Below, in pieces: positions 41,896 through 53,984 of a DNA stretch of 59,381 nucleotides. The number at the start of each line of letters is the position of its first letter. The stretch's first letter is position 1. The notes below the pieces were generated by a model. The model ran no database searches. It was not told the DNA's origin and saw only the letters and a list, made by a program, of their open reading frames with translations. Position numbers and translations under genes: made by a program. The stretch spans positions 1 to 59,381 of the forward strand of contig CAIWRR010000065.1 in the NCBI GenBank assembly GCA_903915125.1, given 5' to 3'. The stretch comes from Candidatus Firestoneibacteriota bacterium. Lineage in GTDB: Bacteria; Oederibacteriota; D2-FULL-39-29; CAIOVX01.

Positions 41896-41924
41896 ATTAT
41901 CCTGAATTGACTACCTCCTGTCAA
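41896..41924 (-). promoter_or_regulatory. Sigma70-like promoter for the small-ORF/DUF4091 unit
   Basis: Minus strand reads TTGACA, 17 nt, GATAAT, directly after the M23 peptidase stop. A 16-bp perfect palindrome GGAAAAGATCTTTTCC (41823-41838) lies in the predicted 5' UTR. Confidence 0.5.
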
Positions 41925-41938
41925 GAAATAGCATTATG

Positions 41939-42649
41939 CTAAAACTTCTGCGGGTTCACCCAGTTCTGATTCAACTTCTCTTGAAGTCCCTGGATTGACA
42001 TTTTGTCGGTTGCTATCCCATATATATTCGGCCTTTCGCCGTTTTCCCAGGATGGAAAGAATCTTCCGGGAAATTTCCTTACCTCCAAATGCAAATGATA
42101 ACCACCCTTGCTTCCATACGCGGCTCCGGTATTCCCGACCCCCCCAAGCGCGTCAACTCCGGCCTTAACCTGTTTTCCCGGCCGGATTCCGGCTGAGACG
42201 CTGTTCAAGTGGCAATAGATGCTCCAGCGATCGCCGCTTGCATGTTGCACGATAACCATATTGCCAAGCGTCTCATAGTTTGGATCTCCTGATCCGTCAA
42301 TTACATCCGCAACAACTCCGTCGGCAATTGAGTAAACAGCAGTACCTTTCGGAGCCGCTATATCAATGCCCGTGTGGAGAAGATTCTTAATCTTGTCTAT
42401 TTTTTCTTTGTAAGTGACGCCCGGAAGGTCAATGCTTATAAGCTTATCCTTGCCTTCCGCAGTCTTGCCGAGATAGTAACCTTTGCAAACTGCCCCAAAA
42501 CCTAATTCCCCAAGCCGGCCTGCGCAGACTTTCATCCACGCGGATTGAGCTATCTTAAGGGGAGCCGGAAAAGCGGCAACCGGGTATTCAACACTTAAAG
42601 ACACGCTAAAGAAGAGAATTACCAGAAAGAAACCGGATATTTTCCTCAT
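41939..42649 (-). CDS. Secreted M23-family (LytM-type) peptidase
   Basis: Signal peptide, then HTGIDIAAPKGTAVYSIADGVV, GNMVIVQH and GYHLHLEV metal-ligand motifs. Confidence 0.8.
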   Translation of the reverse strand: MRKISGFFLVILFFSVSLSVEYPVAAFPAPLKIAQSAWMKVCAGRLGELGFGAVCKGYYLGKTAEGKDKLISIDLPGVTYKEKIDKIKNLLHTGIDIAAPKGTAVYSIADGVVADVIDGSGDPNYETLGNMVIVQHASGDRWSIYCHLNSVSAGIRPGKQVKAGVDALGGVGNTGAAYGSKGGYHLHLEVRKFPGRFFPSWENGERPNIYGIATDKMSIQGLQEKLNQNWVNPQKF

Positions 42650-42667
42650 AAGAGCTCCTTCCGAAGT

Positions 42668-43285
42668 TTAATAGTTGCGATAGGGCTTTCCTCTTTCATC
42701 AGTTCCGCTGATGTTGATTTTTATGTTGCCGTAATCTTTTGACTTTTTGTCACTGCAATAATACCAGCCGCCCGTCCCGTCAAAAGAATAGACAACCGTG
42801 CTGCTTCCTGTTATTTCTTCCGCGGGAACAGGATTGGGAAAGTACATTTCCTTCTGCTCGTTCGCTATTTTCTCCGGCATGCCTCCGTTATGCTCGGCCA
42901 TATATATGCCGATGCTGCAGCGAAGGGCCCGCAGATTCTCAAGAGTTGTCCTCAGCGCGGGTTTTGCCGTCAAAAATTTATTGCTCTTCTTTTCCCACGC
43001 TTTTCCTGTTTTAGCCAGGAGCATTCTTCCTGACGCAACAATTGTTTCACCCGTCGGCCAGTGCTTATAAAGGGCAGACGCGCTTTTCTTCACTAACAAA
43101 CGTGCCGTGTATTCCGCCTCATAACTATCCGCGCTTTTTGCGGCGCCTTTGGTTATTTTAACGGAAGAGACTTCAAAATCATCGCTTAGCAAACTGCCGA
43201 TAAGTTTTGAATCGGGGAGTTTTGTATTTGAACAACCGCAGGCCAGAACCAATGCCAGCGCGGATGATATCAATAACCGTCTCAT
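42668..43285 (-). CDS. Lipoprotein with pseudopilin-like C-terminal globular region
   Basis: Lipobox LVLACGC. The C-terminal LENLRALRCSIGIYMAEHNGGMPEKI...YFPNPVP...WYY...D..G.PY.NY resembles the GspG/type IV pilin head, but the N-terminal prepilin motif is absent. Confidence 0.4.
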   Translation of the reverse strand: MRRLLISSALALVLACGCSNTKLPDSKLIGSLLSDDFEVSSVKITKGAAKSADSYEAEYTARLLVKKSASALYKHWPTGETIVASGRMLLAKTGKAWEKKSNKFLTAKPALRTTLENLRALRCSIGIYMAEHNGGMPEKIANEQKEMYFPNPVPAEEITGSSTVVYSFDGTGGWYYCSDKKSKDYGNIKINISGTDERGKPYRNY

Positions 43286-43316
43286 TCACCCTCCCTGCTA
43301 ATCTTAACGGGAAAAA

Positions 43317-43751
43317 TCATATTAGCGGACAGTTAACTTCTATCTGCCTCCAGCCATTATCAGTCATATCATACATACAATGGCCTGTTATTTGCCGGGT
43401 TTCGCCTGCTCTCCAGTAATAGCCCGAAGAAGGCCAACCTGGAATCTTCATTAAATCAACAACAAATTTAATTTTCGCGGCAAACATGATTTCATAATGC
43501 TCAACGCCATTAATAACGGAGCGCTGGCCGTTTGTTTTCTTGAACTCCAACACAGTGAAACCTTCACCCACTCCGTATCTCGTTAAGGAGGCACTTGCCA
43601 TTTGCTCTGATGGCCGGTCGAGGCTGCCGCAACCTGAGCAAAGAATTACCGCTCCAATACAAAACAACAATATTTTTTTTATGATGCTCTCCTGTAGTAC
43701 GCGGATTTGTTTAAGGCGGATTGTTAAGGAAGTCCACCCGAAGACCGCCAT
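43317..43751 (-). CDS. Small lipoprotein, unknown function
   Basis: KKILLFCIGAVILCSGCGS lipobox. The start codon is uncertain because the n-region is long if translation begins at the ATG at 43751. Confidence 0.45.
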   Translation of the reverse strand: MAVFGWTSLTIRLKQIRVLQESIIKKILLFCIGAVILCSGCGSLDRPSEQMASASLTRYGVGEGFTVLEFKKTNGQRSVINGVEHYEIMFAAKIKFVVDLMKIPGWPSSGYYWRAGETRQITGHCMYDMTDNGWRQIEVNCPLI

Positions 43752-43794
43752 TCTTTGAATATCAAAGAAACAAGGCCCTGAGGAAAGCGGGCCT

Positions 43795-44775
43795 TTACTC
43801 GCCGTAAACCGCTATCAGTTCTTCCAGCGTGAAGCTGGCGCTGAGCTGCCTGGGCTTGATACGTCCGTCAAGGATCTTAAAAAAGAACTCCGCTATGGTT
43901 TCCGGGGTCAGCAATACGGGTTTTCCGGCGGAGTCATTGCCGATGTCATACGTCTTCAGCAGTTGAGCCCCCAGGCTTCCGGCGGAGATAAGGAAATGAT
44001 TTTGCAGTTTATTAAGATCCAAGAGATCGGCGGCCAGAACTTTCCCTACAACCGAAAGGCATCTGACAACGCTGGTATTGCCGGCTTCATCTGCAAGGAC
44101 AACGCGCTGTTCTTCTTTCAGCGGGTCTATGGGGATTGATCCGGTTTTTTCTTTTTCCGGCACTCCGCGCATCAGCGCCCCGAGATCAGCGATAGAGTGG
44201 TTAATTATAAGCGTACCCGGGAGGCAGGCGAACGGCTCCACGGAGAACGCGCTGGGAAGCAGAAGGTGAATCTCCTGGCTGAGACTGACATGGGGACTGT
44301 TAAAAGTGCCCACAATGACATTGTTGAGAGAAAGATTCTTAGTCGCAAAGACCCCGCCAAGCACGATACAGTTCTCAAGTACGATATCGTCGGCAAATAT
44401 ATTCGCCGCGACATAGGCATTTTTAAGATTTACCGTTTTCGCGTTTACGTCCGCGCCGAAATAGGTCCTGCCGCCTTTTGCCTGCGCGATTACCGCGCCC
44501 GCCGAACCGACGCATTTACGAAAAATAACAGGTTCCTTTACGTCGCTGTAAACACTGCATTCCATCTGGGTAAAAACGGCGCCCTGAACCTCGAAAGGCC
44601 CTTTTGTTATTTCCAAATTGCGCGCGTAGAGAGCGCCTTCAACCACAGTCTCTCCCTGTATTGAAACATCACGGTCAAGCTCTGCCACCACATTCGGGAT
44701 TATTGCGCTTCTCACCAGATTATCCTTAAGCACAATTTGGTGCTTATCGACTGTGAAATTCTTCAGCTCTTTCAT
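43795..44775 (-). CDS. Beta-helix repeat protein, bactofilin-like N-terminal half
   Basis: Repeating short strand pattern: DVSIQGETVVEGALYARNLEITKGPFEVQGAVF...VNAKTVNLKNAYVAANIFADDIVLENCIVLGGVFATKNLSLNNVIVG. No signal peptide. Confidence 0.35.
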   Translation of the reverse strand: MKELKNFTVDKHQIVLKDNLVRSAIIPNVVAELDRDVSIQGETVVEGALYARNLEITKGPFEVQGAVFTQMECSVYSDVKEPVIFRKCVGSAGAVIAQAKGGRTYFGADVNAKTVNLKNAYVAANIFADDIVLENCIVLGGVFATKNLSLNNVIVGTFNSPHVSLSQEIHLLLPSAFSVEPFACLPGTLIINHSIADLGALMRGVPEKEKTGSIPIDPLKEEQRVVLADEAGNTSVVRCLSVVGKVLAADLLDLNKLQNHFLISAGSLGAQLLKTYDIGNDSAGKPVLLTPETIAEFFFKILDGRIKPRQLSASFTLEELIAVYGE

Positions 44776-45816
44776 CTAATTCTCCTTTACCCCTGCGTTA
44801 TTCCAAAGCTGCTGTATGGTTTTGGCTTCGCGCTGAATGCGCGTATCCGGATTATTTCCGGCGTGTTGAACAATCAACTGCTTCAGGCTTTCGCCGATGT
44901 CCGTTTTTGTCGCCCCGGCAAAACCGTTTAGCGGCTGCGTGCGCTCAATGCAATACTGCCGTTTTGCTTCAAGCTCTTTGACAAAAGGCGCATTATCCGG
45001 AAAATATACATTTGTTTCTTTCCCGCCTGACATGCCTTCTTTTTCGATAAAAACCGCCGGCACCAGGAGCGTTTGTTCCGCTTCAATCCTGAGGTCTTCA
45101 TTTATGGCGCTTATAGATTCTCTCAAACGCGCGCCCGCGGCTATACTCTTGCTCGCGCTGGATATTATTGACAAAGCGCTGTGCTTGACGGAATAGGTCA
45201 ACAACTGGCTTTGCGCCAGCTGAGACTCGCGGCCTCCCAGCGCCTGGGTTGCCACAAGCGATGAACGCGAAGAATCAGAGACAGGATCCGCGCTGGCCAC
45301 GCGCAATGAAAAAGCCGCCATGTCAAGGTTATGGACGCGTTTTTTAAGTTCCGTGTCAAGATCTTCAAAAAGACGCACATAACGCGACTTAATCCGGTTG
45401 TAATCTTTTTCCATCTGCTCCTGCAGGGCCCTGCATCTGGCGGAAAGGTTGAGAATCTCCTGAAGCTTCGGCCCCAAGGCCATGGAAAGCTTTGTCATCT
45501 GCTGGGTAAGAGTGCTTTGGATAAACCCGAAAAAACCCTTGACAACTTCTCCGGATATTTTCTTCGCGGCTTCGGCCTTGCTGGCTATCTGGGCGGCTTC
45601 GGTTGCCACCACAGACGCGGTCATCAGGTCAACATCATTCTTGCAGACGGCAACGCTCTGCTGAAAGGGATCGTCGTCAACAGTGACCAGTATCTCAACA
45701 CCCTCCGACCATTGCATAGAAACCGACTGGGTTCCTCCATTCTCGGAAGCAGGATATCTGAAACTTCCGCTCACAGTGCCTGATATTGTCTGATGGTCTC
45801 TTATCCTGTACGCCAT
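44776..45816 (-). CDS. Hypothetical protein, paralog A of a tandem pair
   Basis: Colinear similarity to 45818-46729 (see finding). Start set at MAYRIRDHQ, 1 nt after the paralog B stop. Confidence 0.6.
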   Translation of the reverse strand: MAYRIRDHQTISGTVSGSFRYPASENGGTQSVSMQWSEGVEILVTVDDDPFQQSVAVCKNDVDLMTASVVATEAAQIASKAEAAKKISGEVVKGFFGFIQSTLTQQMTKLSMALGPKLQEILNLSARCRALQEQMEKDYNRIKSRYVRLFEDLDTELKKRVHNLDMAAFSLRVASADPVSDSSRSSLVATQALGGRESQLAQSQLLTYSVKHSALSIISSASKSIAAGARLRESISAINEDLRIEAEQTLLVPAVFIEKEGMSGGKETNVYFPDNAPFVKELEAKRQYCIERTQPLNGFAGATKTDIGESLKQLIVQHAGNNPDTRIQREAKTIQQLWNNAGVKEN

Positions 45817-45817
45817 T

Positions 45818-46729
45818 TTACGCCAACCCCTGTTTCTGTTCTGCGCAGGCTGAGATGAGCTCAAGCGTTGTTTTGCTTACCCTTTCCGGAAGGCTTCCGG
45901 CCGCAAGCATGGCACGCGCCTGCTCTATCACGGCTTCAGCTATCTCCCCGTTTCCTGAAGAGTCGAGACGGCCGAATTCCGGAAGCAGCGCCGATTCAAT
46001 ATTTTTGGAAACCGAAAATGCAGGCGCGTAAACCGCCTTTGATTTTATATCCATATTGATATCATCACTTTCAAAAAGAACGGCAGGAATCATAACCGCG
46101 ACGGAAGATTCGGGGGATTCACCGTCAATTATCTGCATCATTGATTCCTGAAGCGCTGCCGTCTTGTCCAGTATTCCAGACATATTCTCAAGCGCCTTAA
46201 GCGCCGTCCGGCGCGCAACAGACGAAGCTATCGCCTGTGAAGCGCAGATACTCTCTTTCTGGTGAACAGGCGTCTGAACCCCTTCGTTAAGCATGCGCCT
46301 CATGGAAAGATGCATTTGGACAGCCGATAATTCTACAGACGCTTTGTCCAGCTCTGATACGCGGGTTTTTAGGGAATTGTTAAGGGTTTGGAATACTTTT
46401 GTGTACCGGTTTGAAATACGGTGAAAATCACGGTCCATCTGCTCGTGAACACGCCGGAGAGCCGCGCCAAAATGGCTAAGCTCCTGGAGCTTGGCATCAA
46501 CTACGGCCCTGGCCTCCGCGCTTCTCTGCGAGAGCTGGGACAAAACGAGGGAAAAGAAACCGCGGTTGACATTTTCGCAAATATGATTTGCCGCGCTTTG
46601 TTCCGCGGCTACAGTCGCCGCCTTCATGGCAACTATGGCTACAGTCGTGCCGTTGACATGATTCGCAACCTGCTGAACGCTTTCCGCCATCGGCTCGGTG
46701 CTGACATTTACATACAGAGTGGATGACAT
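45818..46729 (-). CDS. Hypothetical protein, paralog B of a tandem pair
   Basis: 303 aa, no TM segment or signal peptide. Its ATG shares one base with the upstream TAA (TAATG). Confidence 0.6.
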   Translation of the reverse strand: MSSTLYVNVSTEPMAESVQQVANHVNGTTVAIVAMKAATVAAEQSAANHICENVNRGFFSLVLSQLSQRSAEARAVVDAKLQELSHFGAALRRVHEQMDRDFHRISNRYTKVFQTLNNSLKTRVSELDKASVELSAVQMHLSMRRMLNEGVQTPVHQKESICASQAIASSVARRTALKALENMSGILDKTAALQESMMQIIDGESPESSVAVMIPAVLFESDDINMDIKSKAVYAPAFSVSKNIESALLPEFGRLDSSGNGEIAEAVIEQARAMLAAGSLPERVSKTTLELISACAEQKQGLA

Positions 46730-48732
46730 TATCTGACCTCCGGCTTTGAGCCTGTTTCTTCCGGCCCGCTGCCAGGGGATCCGGCTTCCCCTCCGCCTGT
46801 TTCAGGTTCCGCAGCCGCCCCCGATTTCGCCGCCGCAGCGTCTTTATAGTCCTGCACTGTTTGCTTAAGATTAAGCGAAAGCCCTTTCTGCACTTCTTCT
46901 CCCAAATCAGGCTGCGGAGGCAATTCCGCCATCTCCGCGAAATAAGCGTTTACGCCAAGCAAATTCTTGCGCCTTTCATTAAGAGAAGTCATCCTGGACA
47001 TGGCTCCGGCAAAATCCCTCGACCCTGCGTCACAAAGCGAGGCGTCGAAAAATTCGATATAACCGAATTCCCCGGCCTTCCGGTCGATTTCTTCTTTCAG
47101 CCTGTTAATGTATTCATTGAACTCATCCTGAATCTTCCGGAATTCCGCGCTCTTCACTTCATAGGCGGCTATGGATTCCCCTGATGAACCGGAAGCATCC
47201 ACTTTCGACTCAGACAGGCTGCCTGAAGCCGCCATTTTCTTCTGCGTCTCTTCGAAAGCCTTGAACTGGTTAAAGCTTGCCGTGAATTCCGTCAGGCTGG
47301 CCTGCATTAAGTTGATCAGCTCGCTGCCTTCGGCGCGGTTTCTGCCGTAGAAGTCGTCCGTATCCCTATGCCACTGATTCAGGTAATCCAGCTTCTGATC
47401 TTTTATATCATTGTAGAGCTTCATGCGCTCAATGCGGGTTTCTCTCATGAGATTCCTTAGGATAGGGCTTACGATTTCTTCGTGTATCTGGTGAATACCG
47501 AAGGGAAAACTTGTCCGGCGCCCGTCCATGGCGACCCAGTTTCCCGAGATAGCGTCATAATGCACCCTGGAACTCTTCTTAAGTTCAAACGGGCGGTAAT
47601 TGTCTACCGACTCCTGGTAATCAAAACGCTCCCCCCTTATACGGTCTATCTCTTCCGCTTCAAGATGGGGGGAATAGTGGTTGTAAGCGGAATTAAGGCT
47701 TGCAAACAGTGTTTTATTGGCGTGTGTCACCATATGATCCGTAGAACCAATCTTAACTTTTGTGACAAGCTGGATCGTTGAGGCCAGGCGGTCCATAAGC
47801 CCCTGCAGGAACTCCTCAAACTGGGCTGTCTGCCCTTCCATAGCTTTTTTCATTTCATTCAGAACCTTAAAACGTTCTATATCGTCCTTTTGGGCGTCGG
47901 TGTCAAACACATTAAGGATAAAACCGTTTGAAGCTTCCGTGGTGCCATGCTCGCGAAGAAAGTCGGCGTAAGAACTTTTCGGGTCAATGACCGGCATTGA
48001 GACTGAATTGCGGTCAAGGTCATTCAGGAAGAAAGACGCGGCTCGCATATTGCGGTCTAAACCGCCAAGGTAGTCATAATATGAGACCTGCTGTATGGAA
48101 CGGGAGAACTCGGATGTGTTTACTTCTTCCATTGCCGAAGAGCCTTCAACCAGCGGTATGTTCTTTAAGGCGCCTTCAATTTCCTGAATGTTCTTGATAA
48201 AAGCATCCTGGTTTTTTATATTATAGAGAATGAATTCCTGCAGCGGAACATTGTTTGTGTGGTCCAGCATAAAACTTTTGCCTTCAAAAGGAATCCGGGT
48301 TGCGACAGGAATGTACGCGACACCAAGACGATGAACCTTGTAGTCGCGTCGTATGTTGCCAAACTCCTCGCGAAAAACATTAATGTTTTCTTCAGTGTCA
48401 AGTATAAGTTTTTCCTGCTTCTTCTTTTCCAGCATTGCTACCACCGCCGGAATGACGAGTCCGCCCGCCAGAAAATACAGAAAAGATATATTGGCAAAAA
48501 GCGCAAAAAGCGCGCAAAATCCTGCTCCTATAAACCATAACAGCATTAAATTGTGTTGCTTTTTAACATCAGCCTCGGCTTGTTGCTTTACCTCTTCTTT
48601 TGCTTCAATTTCAGCTTCCAGCCTGAGTTCTTCATCAACAATCTTCTTTGCCGCAGCAGCGTAATATTCATAGAGAACTTTCGCTTGATCCTGGATTACA
48701 TCATTTGATCCGGAAAAAACTTTTGCGCTCAT
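46729..48732 (-). CDS. Large two-TM coiled-coil membrane protein, unknown family
   Basis: 667 aa. N-terminal charged helix, a TM hairpin (LMLLWFIGAGFCALFALFA / FLYFLAGGLVIPAVVAML), a long helical region, and a Gly/Pro/Glu-rich tail. Confidence 0.6.
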   Translation of the reverse strand: MSAKVFSGSNDVIQDQAKVLYEYYAAAAKKIVDEELRLEAEIEAKEEVKQQAEADVKKQHNLMLLWFIGAGFCALFALFANISFLYFLAGGLVIPAVVAMLEKKKQEKLILDTEENINVFREEFGNIRRDYKVHRLGVAYIPVATRIPFEGKSFMLDHTNNVPLQEFILYNIKNQDAFIKNIQEIEGALKNIPLVEGSSAMEEVNTSEFSRSIQQVSYYDYLGGLDRNMRAASFFLNDLDRNSVSMPVIDPKSSYADFLREHGTTEASNGFILNVFDTDAQKDDIERFKVLNEMKKAMEGQTAQFEEFLQGLMDRLASTIQLVTKVKIGSTDHMVTHANKTLFASLNSAYNHYSPHLEAEEIDRIRGERFDYQESVDNYRPFELKKSSRVHYDAISGNWVAMDGRRTSFPFGIHQIHEEIVSPILRNLMRETRIERMKLYNDIKDQKLDYLNQWHRDTDDFYGRNRAEGSELINLMQASLTEFTASFNQFKAFEETQKKMAASGSLSESKVDASGSSGESIAAYEVKSAEFRKIQDEFNEYINRLKEEIDRKAGEFGYIEFFDASLCDAGSRDFAGAMSRMTSLNERRKNLLGVNAYFAEMAELPPQPDLGEEVQKGLSLNLKQTVQDYKDAAAAKSGAAAEPETGGGEAGSPGSGPEETGSKPEVR

Positions 48733-48743
48733 AAAATTAGCTC

Positions 48744-49460
48744 CTATATGTCAATATCATTTCTGCACTCTTTGCGTATCCTGACCAGATCGCTGAGCCT
48801 GTCAGCCGAAGGCCTTACCTGCCCTGCCGGCAGGAGGGTACCGCCGTCTCTTGTATTTTTCAAAATACCGAACAGGACTTTCATCTCCGAGAGAATTTTG
48901 CCGTCCAATTCCAGCGCGGCTTTTGTATCAAGAGGACAGAGATATTTAAGGTCCTCTCCAATCCGTTCTATCTGTTTACGCAATTCAGGGTATTCCTGAT
49001 CAAGGACCGCAATAGAAGAGTATTCCTCCGTGAAAAACGATCTTAGCCCGTCAATTGAAGCAAAAGCCCTGTTCTCTCCACGCCCTATCCCGGCTGCCTT
49101 AATACCTGCCGAACATCCTATTGCGTAACCTGAGATAAGGAGTAAAAACAATACCAGCTGGATATACAAGGAAAAATTGAAGGCACAGCCGGTAACATGC
49201 GCGAATAACAGTCCCGACAGAGCAAAGAGAGAATAAAGCGCGGCGGAAACCCAGAAAATACCGAGGGAGGGAAGAATTTTTTTGAACGCCGGAACGGTTT
49301 TCCAGATTTGAATCATATTCAGGTAACTGGAAGAAAAAACCGAAACAATGACAAACATATCCAGCCAAATCTGTTCCGGCCAGGGTTTGGCCGTCACAAA
49401 AAGCATAAATCCGGCGACAATAACAACAATCCCCAGGAAAAATCCGATAAGGCGCTTCAT
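48744..49460 (-). CDS. 5-TM membrane protein with ~100-aa soluble C-terminal domain, unknown family
   Basis: 238 aa. Hydrophobic segments run through about residue 125, followed by a charged helical domain. Confidence 0.55.
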   Translation of the reverse strand: MKRLIGFFLGIVVIVAGFMLFVTAKPWPEQIWLDMFVIVSVFSSSYLNMIQIWKTVPAFKKILPSLGIFWVSAALYSLFALSGLLFAHVTGCAFNFSLYIQLVLFLLLISGYAIGCSAGIKAAGIGRGENRAFASIDGLRSFFTEEYSSIAVLDQEYPELRKQIERIGEDLKYLCPLDTKAALELDGKILSEMKVLFGILKNTRDGGTLLPAGQVRPSADRLSDLVRIRKECRNDIDI

Positions 49461-49478
49461 GAATATCCCCCAAAAAGT

Positions 49479-50657
49479 TCAGATCACTTTCAACCCGCAA
49501 GACGGGCAGAACAAAACGTTTGGCGCGAGTTGATTCCCGCAGCGCGAGCAAGCGCTGCCGTCGGGCGCGGAAGACTGCGCCGAAACAAGCGGCTGCCCGC
49601 AGGAAACACAGCGCGAAGCTTTCTCGTCATTATCACTGCCGCATTTCGGGCACGGCAAATATGGATCCCCGCAATGAGGGCAGAACTTTGAGGAATTCTG
49701 GAATTTCTTGGAACACTTTGAGCAGAACACGTCACGGGCAACAGCGTGCTGAGGTATATTTTTGTTTATCTGCCCATCTTGAGGATTGCTGCCTGCCGGC
49801 GGGTCCATCATGGACTTTCCGACTCCGCCGCTCCCGCCCATTAAACCGCCGCCCATCAACATAATGCCAAGGAGGCCGGTGCTTCCGGGACCGGTCACCG
49901 CGTCTTTGCCAAGCTTGAAGGCTTCGCTCTGCTGCCAGGTGTAGCCAGCTATACTCTGAGCGCTTTGCTGAGCCATCGCCTCAAGTATCTTTTTTCCGTC
50001 AGCGGTGCGGTCGTCAATATCAATCGATGTAATATAGAAACCGGTTAGCAAGAAACCGTACTCTTCCCAGAAAGGCGCCATATTTTTTTGAAGCTGCTGC
50101 GAAAGCGCATCCAGATGCGCGCTTATGCTTTTAAGGCCGATGCTGTTTGCCTGCATCACCTGGAGGAGCAGTGACTTGGTCTTTGAAACGAGTAATCCTC
50201 TAAAATTATTGGTTATCGCCTTGGCGTCAAAACTAGCGGCGGTGCCGACCAGATTTTTTAGAAAACGTCCTGAATCACTAACCTTTACGCCGTACCTTCC
50301 TTTTGCCATCAGCGGCACCATTGTCTTATAGTCGGGGTCGTTCAGCCTCATGTTGTCCGTATCCCAATCAATATCGAGCGGCATAAGTTTATTGACAAAC
50401 CATACTTCAGCCGTGAAAGGATTATTGCCGCCGAAAGGCAGTCCAAAAAGAGAGCGGAGTAAAGGAATGTTTTCAGTATCGAGAGTGTGCTTGCCGGGGC
50501 CGAATTTTTGTATCATGCGGCCCTTGCTGAACAAGACCGCTTCCTGGGATTCCGCGACGATTATCTGGGTGAAAGTGCTGAGGTTTGTTTCTTTGTAACG
50601 CCAGGCATAGACAGGTTCAGACCCCGGATCCCACTTGATAAAGTCTATAAATGCCAT
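49479..50657 (-). CDS. SPFH (band 7) domain protein of the YdjI / 'virion core protein-like' type with C-terminal zinc ribbons
   Basis: MAFIDFIKWDP...AESQEAVLFSKGRMIQKFGPGKHTLDTENIPLL is typical of this family. A Gly-rich linker follows, then six CxxC pairs (CSKCS, CPHCG, CPKCG, CVSCG, CSRCG, CPSCG). Start set at the ATG at 50657 behind GGGGGGG. Confidence 0.7.
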   Translation of the reverse strand: MAFIDFIKWDPGSEPVYAWRYKETNLSTFTQIIVAESQEAVLFSKGRMIQKFGPGKHTLDTENIPLLRSLFGLPFGGNNPFTAEVWFVNKLMPLDIDWDTDNMRLNDPDYKTMVPLMAKGRYGVKVSDSGRFLKNLVGTAASFDAKAITNNFRGLLVSKTKSLLLQVMQANSIGLKSISAHLDALSQQLQKNMAPFWEEYGFLLTGFYITSIDIDDRTADGKKILEAMAQQSAQSIAGYTWQQSEAFKLGKDAVTGPGSTGLLGIMLMGGGLMGGSGGVGKSMMDPPAGSNPQDGQINKNIPQHAVARDVFCSKCSKKFQNSSKFCPHCGDPYLPCPKCGSDNDEKASRCVSCGQPLVSAQSSAPDGSACSRCGNQLAPNVLFCPSCGLKVI

Positions 50658-50710
50658 ATCCCCCCCTGCGCTTCTATCAACCGGTGAAGCCGGAAACTTT
50701 CTCAAACAAG

Positions 50711-50739
50711 ATTATTAACCAATTCCCGGGAAATGTCAA
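50711..50739 (-). promoter_or_regulatory. Sigma70-like promoter of the nine-gene operon
   Basis: Minus strand reads TTGACA, 17 nt, AATAAT, about 50 nt upstream of the ATG at 50657. Confidence 0.55.
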
Positions 50740-50852: not shown

Positions 50853-51902
50853 TTATTTATTGCCTGAATTAACATATTCCTGTTTCTCTATTTTTTTCTT
50901 CGCGGCCGCGTGCTGTCCGAACGTCTCGCTAAACTCGTGAGAGCCGTCGCCCTTTGCGACAAAGAACTTAAATTTGGTTTCTGCCGGATCCAGCGCCGCG
51001 AGGATGGAAGCCAATCCCGGATTGCAGATAGGGGTCGGCGGCAGCCCATGATATCTATAGGTGTTATAACCGGATTCAACCTCAAGGTCGCGGAAGCTTA
51101 ACCGCGGCTTACCCTTTACCCTGTCGCCGAGCGCGAAATAAACTGTGGCGCAGGATTCAAGCTTCATCCCCGACTTCAGCCGGTTCATAAAGACTCCCGC
51201 TATCAAAGCCCGTTCGGACGGTTTCTCCGCTTCTCTCTCCACTAATGAGGCGAGCCGCAGAACATCATAAAAACGGAGTTTCCTCTCCTCGCACTTTCTG
51301 TAAACGCCGTTCTTTTCCATGACCGCATTGAAATTTGCGCGCATAATTCTGAGTATTTCTTCTTCCTGCGTATTGGCGCTAAAAAGATAGGTCTCGGGGA
51401 AAAGATACCCCTCAAACGTCCTGCCTTCAAGTTTATTCTTCCTGACGAACACGTTATCGGCGCACTTCTTCAGGAACGCGGCTTCCGTGGTAATGCGCTG
51501 AGCCGCCAGCAGCCTCGCGATCTGCTTCGCGGTGAAGCCCTCCGGCACCGTAATCTTGTATTGCTTGACTTTGCCGGAAACCAGCATTGAAATTATTTTC
51601 CAGTTATTCATCGAGGGGGAGAACTCGTAATTGCCGGACTTAAATATCGCTCCGCGAAACAGCCTTGTCAATTTGAAAGAAAAAATATCGCCGATGATTC
51701 CGTTTTCCTTTAAGAGTTCCGCAACACTGCCCGCCGGCATGCCGCGATCAATGGTCACCAGTTTTGGACTATTGCCCAAGCGGTGAGGTATAAGAGATAT
51801 CCACGCAAAAACCGCGAATACTGCCGCCAGCGCGAGCAGGAGCTTTTTCAAGTACGGCGGAATTCCGCCTTTCTTACTTTCTGTCATTTTCCCCCCTTTC
51901 AT
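50853..51902 (-). CDS. mltG: Endolytic murein transglycosylase MltG (YceG-like)
   Basis: N-terminal TM anchor, then VTIPEGFTAKQIA, EGYLFPETY and LASLVEREA motifs. Confidence 0.85.
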   Translation of the reverse strand: MKGGKMTESKKGGIPPYLKKLLLALAAVFAVFAWISLIPHRLGNSPKLVTIDRGMPAGSVAELLKENGIIGDIFSFKLTRLFRGAIFKSGNYEFSPSMNNWKIISMLVSGKVKQYKITVPEGFTAKQIARLLAAQRITTEAAFLKKCADNVFVRKNKLEGRTFEGYLFPETYLFSANTQEEEILRIMRANFNAVMEKNGVYRKCEERKLRFYDVLRLASLVEREAEKPSERALIAGVFMNRLKSGMKLESCATVYFALGDRVKGKPRLSFRDLEVESGYNTYRYHGLPPTPICNPGLASILAALDPAETKFKFFVAKGDGSHEFSETFGQHAAAKKKIEKQEYVNSGNK

Positions 51903-52290
51903 TTAAGTAACCCTGCAGTATATTTGCGGCGGCAAGTTTATCAATCACCTCGTCGCGCCTTTTCCTGCTGACATCCGCCGCAATCAGGTCTTCCTTGGCC
52001 GAGAAAGTTGTAAATCTCTCGTCATAAGTTTCAACAGGTACGTTCACGACGGCTTTAAGTTCTTCCAGCCATTTCAGCACCTGCTTCGCCTTAAAAGCTA
52101 TCTCGCCTTTATTATTATAAGGCATTCCTACGACAATAATCTGCACCTCGTACTCCTTAACAACGGCAAGTATGTCGCGGAAAGCAGTGGAACGCGGGAC
52201 GGTCTTTAAAGCGTGCGCGAGCAGGCAGGCCTCATCGGTCACGGCGAGCCCGACCCTCTTATCTCCGTAATCTACGCCGAGTATTCTCAT
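51874..52290 (-). CDS. ruvX: Holliday junction resolvase-like RuvX (YqgF)
   Basis: MRILGVDYGDKRVGLAV motif. Its ATG overlaps the ubiB stop (ATGA). Confidence 0.85.
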   Translation of the reverse strand: MRILGVDYGDKRVGLAVTDEACLLAHALKTVPRSTAFRDILAVVKEYEVQIIVVGMPYNNKGEIAFKAKQVLKWLEELKAVVNVPVETYDERFTTFSAKEDLIAADVSRKRRDEVIDKLAAANILQGYLNERGENDRK

Positions 52291-53984
52291 AGCTTCCCGG
52301 AACGGAAAATTGAGATGACCAGCCATAAACCGAAGATAGCTGCTATGACAAATCCAAATATTCCATAAACCGGGACTTCAGCTATCTTGGGTCCGGCCCC
52401 GGAGTGAATCACAATCGCGGAACCCATGACCAGCGCGCCGACAATAAGCCCGAAGGTAATGCGGTTTGACGCGCGGTCTATTTCGTTGATCAGCGGTTCA
52501 AGGCCAACATGCTCGAATTCCATCTTGAGCCTGCCTTTCTTTATCAGCCTGATTATATTGAGTATTTCAGATGGCAGCGACCTGAAAAGGTTGTAAACGG
52601 CCGCAGTATGTTTCTCGAGCTCGCGGAGCAGTTTCTTAGCGCTGAGATTGGCCCCGATATATTTTCTCGCGTGCGGTTTGGCGCTCGAAACAAAATCAAA
52701 ATCCGGCACAAGCTCGCGGATAATGCGCTCCACCGAGTACATAGTCTTCGCCAGCAGCGTGAATTCCTTTTCAAACCTGACTCCGTAGCTTCTCGCGAGT
52801 TCCGAGAGTTCCGAAAGCGCCATTCCGATGTCAATTTTTTCGAGAGGAAAACCCTTGTAGCGTTCAAGCAAAACTATTGCTTCCTTCTGGAATTCGGGAT
52901 TTTCCTCGTACTCGCTGACCAGGCCCACATTCGCCAGTTTTTCAGCAGAGAACTCCTCGTCCGCGAATGAAAGGAGCATAAAGGCAAGCCGCTTCAACAT
53001 ATATTCATCCAACCGCCCGGCCATGCCAAAATCCACAATACCCACAGCTCCGTCTTTTTTTATTATAATGTTTCCGGGGTGCGGGTCGGCGTGAAAGAAA
53101 GCCAATTCAAATATCATCGCGTAGTAAATATCTATGATTCGTTCTGCCACTTTTCTCTTTTCCGCGGCCGGAGACTTTGAGCGGATATAGGAGGAGATTT
53201 TCATCCCCTCTATATTCTCCATAACTATAACTTTCTTTCCTGAAAAGTTAAAATTGATCCTCGGGATGTGGACCGCGGTGTTTCCGGCAAAAGCCCTTCT
53301 GAATCTGTCGGCATTACTTACCTCATATGTAAAATCAAGCTCCTTTCTTATTGCTTTGGCAAACTCGTCCACAATGCCGGCCGGATTGTATACTTTAAGT
53401 TCCGGGGCGTATTTCTCGATGAGCCTTGCAAGGTAAAAGAGAATATCAATGTCAGTCTCTACTTCTTTTTCAATACGCGGCCGTTGTACTTTCACCACAA
53501 CGCTCTCTTTAGTGCCAAAAAGCACGGCGGAATGAACCTGCGCTATAGAGGCGGAAGCCAGCGGCTTCTCCTCTATGCTTGAAAAAACTGAGGACAGAGG
53601 TTTTTTGTACTCGGCTTCGAGTATTCTTTTTACTTCGGTGAAAGGAAACGGTTTTACGGAATCCTGCAATTTGGCAAGCTCTCGGGTGAACTTCACCGGG
53701 AGTATATCCGTGCGCATGCTCATAAGCTGACCGAATTTCACGAAAGCCGGACCAAGCTCTTCGCATGCCTTCCTGACTTCCTGCTCTACCAGATGATGCT
53801 CGGCTTCCTTAAAAAACCTTCTCTTCAAATGCAGAAGATGCCCCAGGTTCAGCTTATGCACCAGGTATCCCAGGCTGTGCCTGGCAAGAACATTAACAAT
53901 CTCGCCGAGTCGCCTGACATTGTTGCCTGTTCTGCCGATCCTGAAAATAGACATTTTCCTGAAAAACCCCCGAGAAAACTGCAT
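52287..53984 (-). CDS. ubiB: ABC1/UbiB-family atypical kinase
   Basis: FVKFGQLMSMRTDILP, PLASASIAQVHSA and HADPHPGNI motifs, with two C-terminal TM segments. Confidence 0.8.
   Translation of the reverse strand: MQFSRGFFRKMSIFRIGRTGNNVRRLGEIVNVLARHSLGYLVHKLNLGHLLHLKRRFFKEAEHHLVEQEVRKACEELGPAFVKFGQLMSMRTDILPVKFTRELAKLQDSVKPFPFTEVKRILEAEYKKPLSSVFSSIEEKPLASASIAQVHSAVLFGTKESVVVKVQRPRIEKEVETDIDILFYLARLIEKYAPELKVYNPAGIVDEFAKAIRKELDFTYEVSNADRFRRAFAGNTAVHIPRINFNFSGKKVIVMENIEGMKISSYIRSKSPAAEKRKVAERIIDIYYAMIFELAFFHADPHPGNIIIKKDGAVGIVDFGMAGRLDEYMLKRLAFMLLSFADEEFSAEKLANVGLVSEYEENPEFQKEAIVLLERYKGFPLEKIDIGMALSELSELARSYGVRFEKEFTLLAKTMYSVERIIRELVPDFDFVSSAKPHARKYIGANLSAKKLLRELEKHTAAVYNLFRSLPSEILNIIRLIKKGRLKMEFEHVGLEPLINEIDRASNRITFGLIVGALVMGSAIVIHSGAGPKIAEVPVYGIFGFVIAAIFGLWLVISIFRSGKL

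Follow-up and report, generated by a model that had tools for sequence, protein, structure and literature searches.

The 59,381-nucleotide contig CAIWRR010000065.1 from Candidatus Firestoneibacteriota bacterium is referred to here, in its whole length, as the window. Nine open reading frames (ORFs) of the window, g1 to g9, lie in this order on the minus strand, and the first six of them (g1-g6, 43795-50657) form a copy of a chromosomal six-gene cassette that is tightly coupled, collinear and conserved, and that is found in several phyla. This conserved core consists of g1 (49479-50657), which encodes a soluble SPFH protein with three C-terminal zinc ribbons, g2 (48744-49460), which encodes a multi-pass membrane protein, g3 (46729-48732), which encodes a protein of 667 amino acids (aa) with a transmembrane (TM) hairpin, g4 (45818-46729) and g5 (44776-45816), which encode paralogs of 303 and 346 aa, and g6 (43795-44775), which encodes a protein with a putative bactofilin-like beta-helix. 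The core is followed by three lineage-specific genes, g7 (43317-43751) for a probable lipoprotein or signal-anchored protein, g8 (42668-43285) for a probable lipoprotein of 205 aa, and g9 (41939-42649) for a secreted M23 (LytM-type) metallopeptidase. The junctions from g1 to g9 are, in order, 18, 11, -1 (a 1-nucleotide (nt) overlap), 1, 0, 43, 31 and 18 nt. The ORF calls agree with the coordinates and junctions of a preliminary description, which was made from the letters of the window alone and took all nine genes as one unit.

Relatives of g5 found by a sequence search number only 32, and their contigs show the same six-gene string in entirely different surroundings. A g3 profile finds 292 loci in a collection of 185,579 species, each represented by a single genome. 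When the proteins of the nine window genes and of four flanking genes are compared by tblastn with all 89 loci, matches are obtained for g3 in 89, g4 in 85, g5 in 84, g1 in 78 and g6 in 77 of them, and the matches of g1 and g3-g6 are always collinear and on one strand. The order g1-(g2)-g3-g4-g5-g6 is thus kept at about 80 loci of different species. Outside the same-species loci, the identity is 44-67% for g1 and 43-61% for g6. Clustering of all ORFs of the 83 non-redundant loci places the g2 family in 78 of them and yields no further recurrent sense-strand family. Exactly six ORFs in canonical order are present at 56 of these 83 loci, with median junctions of 4-17 nt, and most of the remaining loci are truncated at the end of a contig. 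Chance juxtaposition of g1-g6 is thus excluded by the collinearity of the cassette across loci of several phyla, and the co-conservation proposed in the preliminary description holds for these six genes. It does not hold for the remaining three. The tblastn matches of g7, g8 and g9 are confined to four same-species contigs (L001-L004), and these genes are absent from more than 80 other loci, including the nearest relatives, in which g3 is 73%, 64% and 60% identical to that of the window. In these relatives g6 is followed by small DUF2752, zinc-ribbon, GYF_2 or glycine-zipper membrane proteins, and no lipoprotein or M23 gene is found after it. MltG, RuvX and the downstream genes of the window likewise give tblastn matches only in the four same-species contigs.

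The breakdown of the g3-profile loci by phylum refers to the best 80 of the 292. These belong to Fibrobacterota (closest, 60%), many Bacteroidota, Acidobacteriota, Ignavibacteriota and Spirochaetota. The Bacteroidota carriers include the cultured Labilibaculum filiforme and Dysgonomonas termitidis, and the Spirochaetota carriers are mostly Treponema, many of them metagenome-assembled genomes (MAGs) from the termite gut. Gemmatimonadota is a probable carrier, as judged from the source name of one g3 homolog among those listed. In one Bacteroidetes MAG from a long-read assembly (L027), five genes (g1, g2, g4, g5 and g6) are broken into two or three ORFs apiece, which could represent assembly indel errors or a decaying copy. 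Small membrane proteins with an N-terminal zinc ribbon and a GYF_2, DUF805, DUF2752 or glycine-zipper region recur loosely beside the cassette in its closest relatives (L010, the P0034 contig, L090:7752-11063 and L089:15244-16362), and may form a peripheral, exchangeable layer.

The g1 protein matches Band_7_1 (PF13421) over residues 19-217 with 128.2 bits against a gathering cut-off of 24 (E 4.4e-37), and its C-terminal residues 308-390 match DZR, Zn_Ribbon_1 and Zn_ribbon_3. Pfam therefore confirms the SPFH domain and the three zinc ribbons that had been recognized by eye. The protein contains 12 cysteines arranged as six CxxC pairs, and the hydropathy scan gives no TM segment (no KD19 segment >=1.6). 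The SPFH domain and the zinc ribbons are connected by a glycine-rich, glycine-zipper-like hydrophobic stretch, GLLGIMLMGGGLMGGSGG, which is kept in homologs from three other loci. A second SPFH-zinc-ribbon paralog adjoins the cassette in some Acidobacteriota and Bacteroidota (L026:6485-7789, L023:5734-7068, L032:15220-16350 and L036:15305-16627). The g2 protein, which is fast-evolving, has a hydrophobic region of 4-5 TM segments in the hydropathy scan, followed by a cytoplasmic helical tail. Whereas the protein is otherwise poorly conserved, this tail carries a conserved (L/V)R(Y/F)(L/I)SP motif at about residues 171-176, in which the proline is nearly invariant in the family alignment. The motif may be a phosphorylation or docking site. 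The g2 family belongs to no Pfam family, and the scan of its individual members gives no consistent Pfam match.

The g3 protein begins with a coiled coil and contains one 44-residue hydrophobic hairpin (residues 60-103), and both of its ends are predicted to be cytoplasmic. The preliminary description took g2 as a 5-TM protein and g3 as a two-TM coiled-coil protein. In the AF2 model of g3 (pLDDT 68.5, pTM 0.33), the TM segments are part of a helical hairpin at the N-terminus, an alpha/beta domain spans about residues 138-272 (pLDDT ~85), and long helices are present in addition. The g3 family has at least 1196 homologs, all of which are annotated as 'hypothetical'. They are 41-60% identical across genome loci of other phyla, and contain no Pfam domain except two C-terminal additions. 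In one g3 homolog among those listed, a zinc ribbon is present at the C-terminus. The g4 and g5 proteins are paralogs over their whole length (31% identity, E 5e-26 by BLASTP; E 3e-49 by family-family hhalign), which bears out the diverged pair proposed earlier, and neither shows a hydrophobic TM region in the hydropathy scan. The g4 protein is helical. At its N-terminus g5 exceeds g4 by about 40 residues, which form a beta-hairpin, and the turn of this hairpin carries a nearly invariant YPASENGG motif in the family alignment. In the AF2 model of g5 (pLDDT 73, pTM 0.24), a long N-terminal beta-hairpin is followed by two helices, the first of about 127 and the second of 52 residues, and by a small C-terminal alpha/beta region.

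A short motif with invariant residues, V-(D/N)-T-x-(P/x)-(F/M/Y)-x-x-S-(V/I), is common to g3 (about 201-219), g4 (6-24) and g5 (45-57). Only this motif is aligned when the g3 profile is compared with those of g4 and g5 by hhalign (E 0.15-0.24, non-significant), so that homology of g3 to g4/g5 was rejected. The motif could be a docking peptide by which the three proteins share one partner.

The g6 protein of the window has no Pfam match of its own, Bactofilin (PF04519) included. Its family does match PF04519, with 17 of 23 members at E<=1 and 27 of 114 at E<=0.01 (best E 2.6e-5), and the other fold-type families that it matches are beta-helices too. One g6 homolog carries a precomputed PF04519 annotation, and another is named CcmA by JGI. 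The g6 family profile finds no bactofilin among the PDB sequences. The bactofilin-like half of g6 (about residues 36-165), which the preliminary description had recognized, is a reasonable remote-homology call on these profile comparisons and not a secure membership. The only hydrophobic segment in the hydropathy scan of g6 is a borderline one of 19 residues inside the beta-helix. All of the 1850 g6 homologs are 'hypothetical', and 25% of them carry zinc ribbons at the C-terminus. Both the g3 and g6 families are typically 45-60% identical across phyla. The C-terminal domain of g6 (165-326) gives 70 matches among 1.84 billion representative proteins, and nearly all of them are g6-like, the exception being a 1527-aa repeat protein. 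Other architectures with this domain were sought among these matches and not found, and the domain is essentially private to the cassette.

No significant match is found for g2-g8 in Pfam, NCBIfam, PADLOC and PHROGs. The library matches of g3-g5 are weak, sub-threshold and mostly of the coiled-coil type, and in Pfam scans of individual family members, g6 matches Bactofilin and zinc ribbons only, and the g5, g3 and g2 families yield noise. These results agree with the earlier view that most of the products are unrecognizable, in that g2-g5 and the C-terminal half of g6 are without a match in the libraries searched. As had been stated, none of the nine products matches a P-loop, nuclease, integrase or transposase entry of the family libraries, and no recognizable enzymatic or nucleotide-binding domain is found in g1-g6. 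In PADLOC-DB v2, eight products have no match and g6 has one weak, spurious match to a methyltransferase model (E 0.0036). The family profiles of g5, g3 and g6 find nothing below E ~1 among the PDB sequences, and Foldseek finds nothing below E 0.08 for the AF2 models of g5 and g3 against PDB, or for that of g5 against BFVD. The similarities listed by Foldseek (beta-PFT stems, F-BAR, HlyD, Vipp1 and AhlB) are of a generic coiled-coil or hairpin type and were not used. In the open literature, with subscription-only papers outside the search, there is neither a description of the six-gene cassette nor a mention of bactofilin together with SPFH or with zinc ribbons. The library and literature searches are thus in accord with the claim that the ensemble matches no described system.

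Among the lineage-specific products, g7 has a hydrophobic N-terminal stretch in the hydropathy scan and no family match, and its ORF is omitted by one gene caller (L001). The g8 protein stays below the threshold throughout the hydropathy scan, and its N-terminus, MRRLLISSALALVLAC, was read by eye; it has no family or PDB match. Neither g7 nor g8 matches the lipobox pattern of the scan. Their earlier assignment as lipoproteins is therefore only probable, because the lipoboxes are non-canonical. The g9 protein matches Peptidase_M23 (PF01551) with 75.2 bits against a cut-off of 28.7 (E 5e-21), as expected from the earlier assignment. Its zinc ligands are intact in the translation (HxxxD as HTGID and HxH as HLHLE), and its matches among the PDB sequences include TagE, DipM and ShyA. 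It starts with only three residues (MRK) before a hydrophobic export signal, and has no cytoplasmic tail.

A sigma-70-type promoter on the minus strand, TTGACA-17-AATAAT (50711..50739), precedes g1, and another, TTGACA-17-GATAAT (41896..41924, minus strand), lies just past the last stop codon and marks the end of the unit. Both sites, which the preliminary description had noted, match the consensus at 11/12 positions. Sites of this quality (>=11/12) occur five times in the window, at 2719, 16888, 29779, 41924 and 50739, as compared with 0.33 +/- 0.6 expected from Markov-shuffled sequence. Four of the five are placed directly upstream of an ORF start, site 2719 being assigned to no ORF, and two (41924 and 50739) bracket the nine-gene block. 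These numbers indicate that the organism uses canonical -35/-10 promoters, unlike Bacteroidota, and the strong sites serve as operon markers in the window. A generic promoter scan shows no enrichment (12 sites versus 10.1 in shuffled sequence). It is plausible that the nine genes form a single transcription unit in this genome, because strong promoters bracket them, no internal site is as strong (none >=11/12 inside the block), and terminator-like hairpins are not in excess there. The g7 gene is probably co-transcribed here, but lies outside the conserved system.

The base composition (GC) of the nine-gene block is the same as that of its flanks. The neighbors in the window are housekeeping genes, with MltG/YceG, RuvX, UbiB and AlaS upstream, and an ABC-2 permease and YchF downstream. 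MltG and RuvX (50853-52326) lie immediately upstream on the same strand. The proximity of MltG is coincidental, because this pair is missing from the flanks of every other cassette locus. The 148 immediate neighbors of the cassette loci fall into 150 Pfam families, the commonest of which are Zn_Ribbon_1 (7) and DUF805 (3), with M23 and phage integrase found twice each. Among the 110 ORFs that are closely attached on the same strand, 100 families are represented, with Zn_Ribbon_1 found four times, DUF805 three times, and M23 and SH3_3 twice each. Conserved extra partners were sought in the flanks by ORF clustering and Pfam scans of the neighbors, and none was found. No g3 homolog is present in 72,556 plasmids, 50,697 phage genomes or IMG/VR, and an origin from a mobile element or phage was rejected on this ground and on the lack of a GC anomaly. 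The heterogeneous flanks and the lack of plasmid, phage and IMG/VR copies thus characterize the cassette as a chromosomal, self-contained module with no conserved partner and no defense-island signature.

Rare variants of the cassette exist. The genes inserted between g2 and g3 in some of them are those for a VanY D,D-carboxypeptidase (L038:9141-9974), for a zinc-ribbon/SH3_3 protein and a YkuD L,D-transpeptidase (L053:4076-5632), and for a TerB protein with a DnaJ-type zinc finger (L009:8312-9985). At two loci (L039 and L041), g1 and g2 are undetected upstream of g3, and a gene for a HAD acid phosphatase is located there instead. M23 genes lie near L051 and L052, and an SLT_2 gene lies near the Fibrobacterota locus L010. 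At one locus only (L005:12295-18094, GCA_040384205.1), genes for a Ser/Thr kinase-iSTAND fusion, an AAA ATPase and a 1028-aa protein are located directly downstream of the cassette, and this group looks like a conflict-system-type module.

The hydropathy-based prediction places all six products of the conserved core in the cytoplasm or the inner membrane, with almost no periplasmic mass. The span from cytoplasm to periplasm ascribed to the system in the preliminary description is therefore not a property of the core. The conservation, parts and topology of g1-g6, together with precedent and with the accessory envelope genes inserted into the cassette of some lineages, suggest that they encode a nucleotide-independent scaffold at the cytoplasmic face of the inner membrane, which acts in membrane or envelope homeostasis; we assign this interpretation a probability of about 0.45. 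A scaffold is suggested because the cassette contains only scaffold-type parts, namely SPFH with zinc ribbons, a bactofilin-like g6 and long helices in the AF2 models of g3 and g5, and no enzyme or NTPase family. Among the precedents, the closest functional parallel is SamGHI of Bacillus subtilis, in which YdjI/SamI, a band-7 protein with a C-terminal zinc ribbon, is recruited by the membrane proteins SamG/H, organizes PspA foci and feeds stress signaling (PMC8581546; bioRxiv 10.64898/2026.02.06.704340; PMC11237479). Archaeal ESCRT loci carry SPFH, coiled-coil and zinc-ribbon proteins (PMC11188069), and bactofilins polymerize at the membrane without nucleotides (PMC12448750).

In such a scaffold, g2 with its 4-5 TM segments and g3 with its TM hairpin would be the membrane anchors. 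The g1 protein would form an SPFH oligomer whose glycine-zipper-like segment and zinc-ribbon contacts keep it at the membrane, in a manner comparable to the recruitment of SamI/YdjI by SamG/SamH. The g4 and g5 proteins would build a hetero-oligomeric coiled-coil lattice, and g6 would polymerize through its bactofilin-like beta-helix, with its private C-terminal domain docking it to the other parts. The zinc ribbons may serve as shared tethers, because g1, 25% of the g6 homologs and one listed g3 homolog carry them at the C-terminus, and because they are the commonest domain of the neighbors. The most likely role of the assembly would be to organize or stabilize a membrane domain. Individual lineages would then bolt periplasmic envelope enzymes onto it, M23 and two lipoproteins within the operon here, and VanY, YkuD or a TerB protein elsewhere.

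Several points weigh against the scaffold interpretation. Four of the six families provide no functional clue, and the word 'scaffold' is largely argued from the absence of enzymes. The link of g6 to bactofilin, judged from profile comparisons, is remote, since the window protein misses PF04519 and the family profile finds no bactofilin in PDB. The stress-response flavor derives from analogy with SamGHI and from a single TerB insertion. The lack of fold matches is weak evidence, because the AF2 models of g5 and g3 are of moderate quality only (pLDDT 73 and 68.5; pTM 0.24 and 0.33).

More tentatively, g1-g6 may constitute a previously unrecognized nucleotide-independent, membrane-associated cytoskeletal or remodeling machine, composed of an SPFH oligomer, a bactofilin-like polymer and three new families (g2, g3 and g4/g5), and forming a system of its own in FCB-group bacteria, Acidobacteriota and spirochaetes instead of a variant of the Psp, flotillin or bactofilin-M23 systems. 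Like the SPFH cages that are built from paralog pairs (HflK/HflC, flotillin-1/2 and prohibitin-1/2), the cassette combines an SPFH protein with a co-encoded pair of long-helix paralogs, g4/g5, and the membrane hairpin of g3 recalls the hairpin anchors of flotillins. Both resemblances are architectural only. Unlike in these cages, g4 and g5 lack an SPFH domain, g1 is devoid of TM segments and occurs only once in most loci, and there is no NfeD or FtsH-type client. The cassette also resembles the archaeal 'Meth_adaptin' ESCRT loci (PMC11188069) in that SPFH is fused to zinc ribbons in a multi-gene membrane-remodeling neighborhood, but it lacks Vps4, ESCRT-III, adaptin-appendage and GOLD, and its lineages are bacterial.

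The preliminary description suggested that the system positions a peptidoglycan hydrolase, and a cell-wall morphogenesis module is the best of the alternatives, although an unlikely one. The bactofilin-like polymer and SPFH scaffold would position peptidoglycan-remodeling enzymes, as Helicobacter pylori CcmA does with Csd1/Csd2 and Hyphomonas BacA with LmdC, and M23 would be the local effector. Bactofilin genes often adjoin M23 genes, BacA directly recruits LmdC (PMC10945521), and bactofilins organize peptidoglycan insertion in Borrelia (bioRxiv 10.1101/2025.04.09.647816). The cassette resembles these pairs in having a protein with a putative bactofilin-like beta-helix and, at the window locus alone, an M23 gene in the string, probably on the same transcript, and in other lineages VanY (L038), YkuD/SH3 (L053), M23 (L051 and L052) and SLT_2 (L010) lie in or beside it. 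However, no peptidoglycan enzyme is conserved with the cassette: such enzymes, of heterogeneous families, accompany it at about 6 of about 85 loci, M23 accounts for only 2 of the 148 and 2 of the 110 neighbors, and g9 follows g6 only in L001-L004. The closest relatives have neither M23 nor the lipoproteins, and the conserved proteins have almost no mass in the periplasm. The pairing of bactofilin with M23, which had been offered as established context, is therefore not conserved. LmdC is bitopic and binds bactofilin with its cytoplasmic tail (PMC10945521), whereas an LmdC-type contact of g9 with a cytoplasmic polymer is impossible, because its cytoplasmic N-terminus has three residues only. 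Moreover, g6 is only remotely bactofilin-like, has a private C-terminal domain of 160 residues, and is accompanied by five further conserved partners to which nothing corresponds in those pairs. The cell-wall interpretation is thus partly supported at best, because M23, VanY, YkuD and SLT enzymes join the cassette only sporadically.

It is improbable that the cassette is a divergent PspA/ESCRT-III system, i.e. a true homolog of the B. subtilis pspA-samGHI (pspA-ydjGHI) operon in which g4/g5, and perhaps g3, are ESCRT-III-like polymers diverged beyond recognition. The two do resemble each other. Both encode a soluble Band_7_1 SPFH protein with one or more C-terminal zinc ribbons, the YdjI/SamI architecture (PMC11237479), in one operon with its presumed recruiters, which are integral membrane proteins, both have extra zinc-ribbon proteins nearby, both act, or would act, at the cytoplasmic face of the membrane, and neither encodes an ATPase. 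In addition, g4 and g5 are long helical proteins, and the g3 model gives very weak Foldseek matches to Vipp1/PspA (E 2.2-3.4, probability 0.16-0.33). Nevertheless, PspA_IM30 and Snf7 are not matched by any of the nine window products, in the case of g3 and g4 even at lenient E-values, and are absent from the matches listed for 28 g5-family members and from the 25 commonest families of 30 g3-family members. Among the matches listed for the g5 model there is no structure of PspA, Vipp1 or ESCRT-III, and homology of g3, g4 or g5 to PspA was rejected from hhalign profiles against E. coli PspA (probability below 1%). No TPM-domain (YdjH-like) partner is detected in g2-g8 (TPM_phosphatase, Pfam). 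The analogy to the PspA operon drawn in the preliminary description consequently does not extend to membership. The cassette further differs from pspA-samGHI in g2, g3, g4/g5 and the g6 C-terminal domain, which have no counterpart there, in its bactofilin-like protein, and in its distribution, since pspA-samGHI is found in Firmicutes and the cassette in FCB-group phyla, Acidobacteriota, Spirochaetota and probably Gemmatimonadota.

An anti-phage or conflict system that senses infection at the membrane and causes abortive infection, with the TM proteins g2/g3 or the oligomerizing g4/g5 collapsing membrane integrity, is very doubtful: the patchy distribution over several phyla, the lack of a housekeeping annotation, the transposases, GIY-YIG/SLFN genes or kinase-iSTAND/AAA module beside some loci, and the weak likeness of the g5 N-terminal hairpin to the stem hairpins of beta-pore-forming toxins (Foldseek E 0.35-2, not significant) are outweighed by the PADLOC result, in which the spurious g6 match is the only one, by the absence of g3 homologs from the plasmid, phage and IMG/VR collections, by flanks that are mostly housekeeping genes (integrases, 2 of 148 neighbors), by a GC content equal to that of the surroundings, by the lack of sensor or enzymatic effector domains, and by core proteins that are 41-67% identical to those of other-phylum loci, which is unusually conservative for a defense system.

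The unit of study is corrected to the six-gene core, and is not the M23 peptidase. SPFH proteins and bactofilins are two of the main nucleotide-independent scaffolds of bacterial membranes, and the cassette combines an SPFH and a bactofilin-like protein with four unannotated families in an arrangement that hundreds of species keep, among them Bacteroidales of the gut, treponemes of the termite gut and Acidobacteriota from soil. Because cultured carriers such as L. filiforme and D. termitidis exist, the question of what the cassette does is directly testable. If its parts assemble, they would provide a new model for sub-membrane structures that are built without ATP or GTP, and would give a function to several thousand 'hypothetical proteins'.

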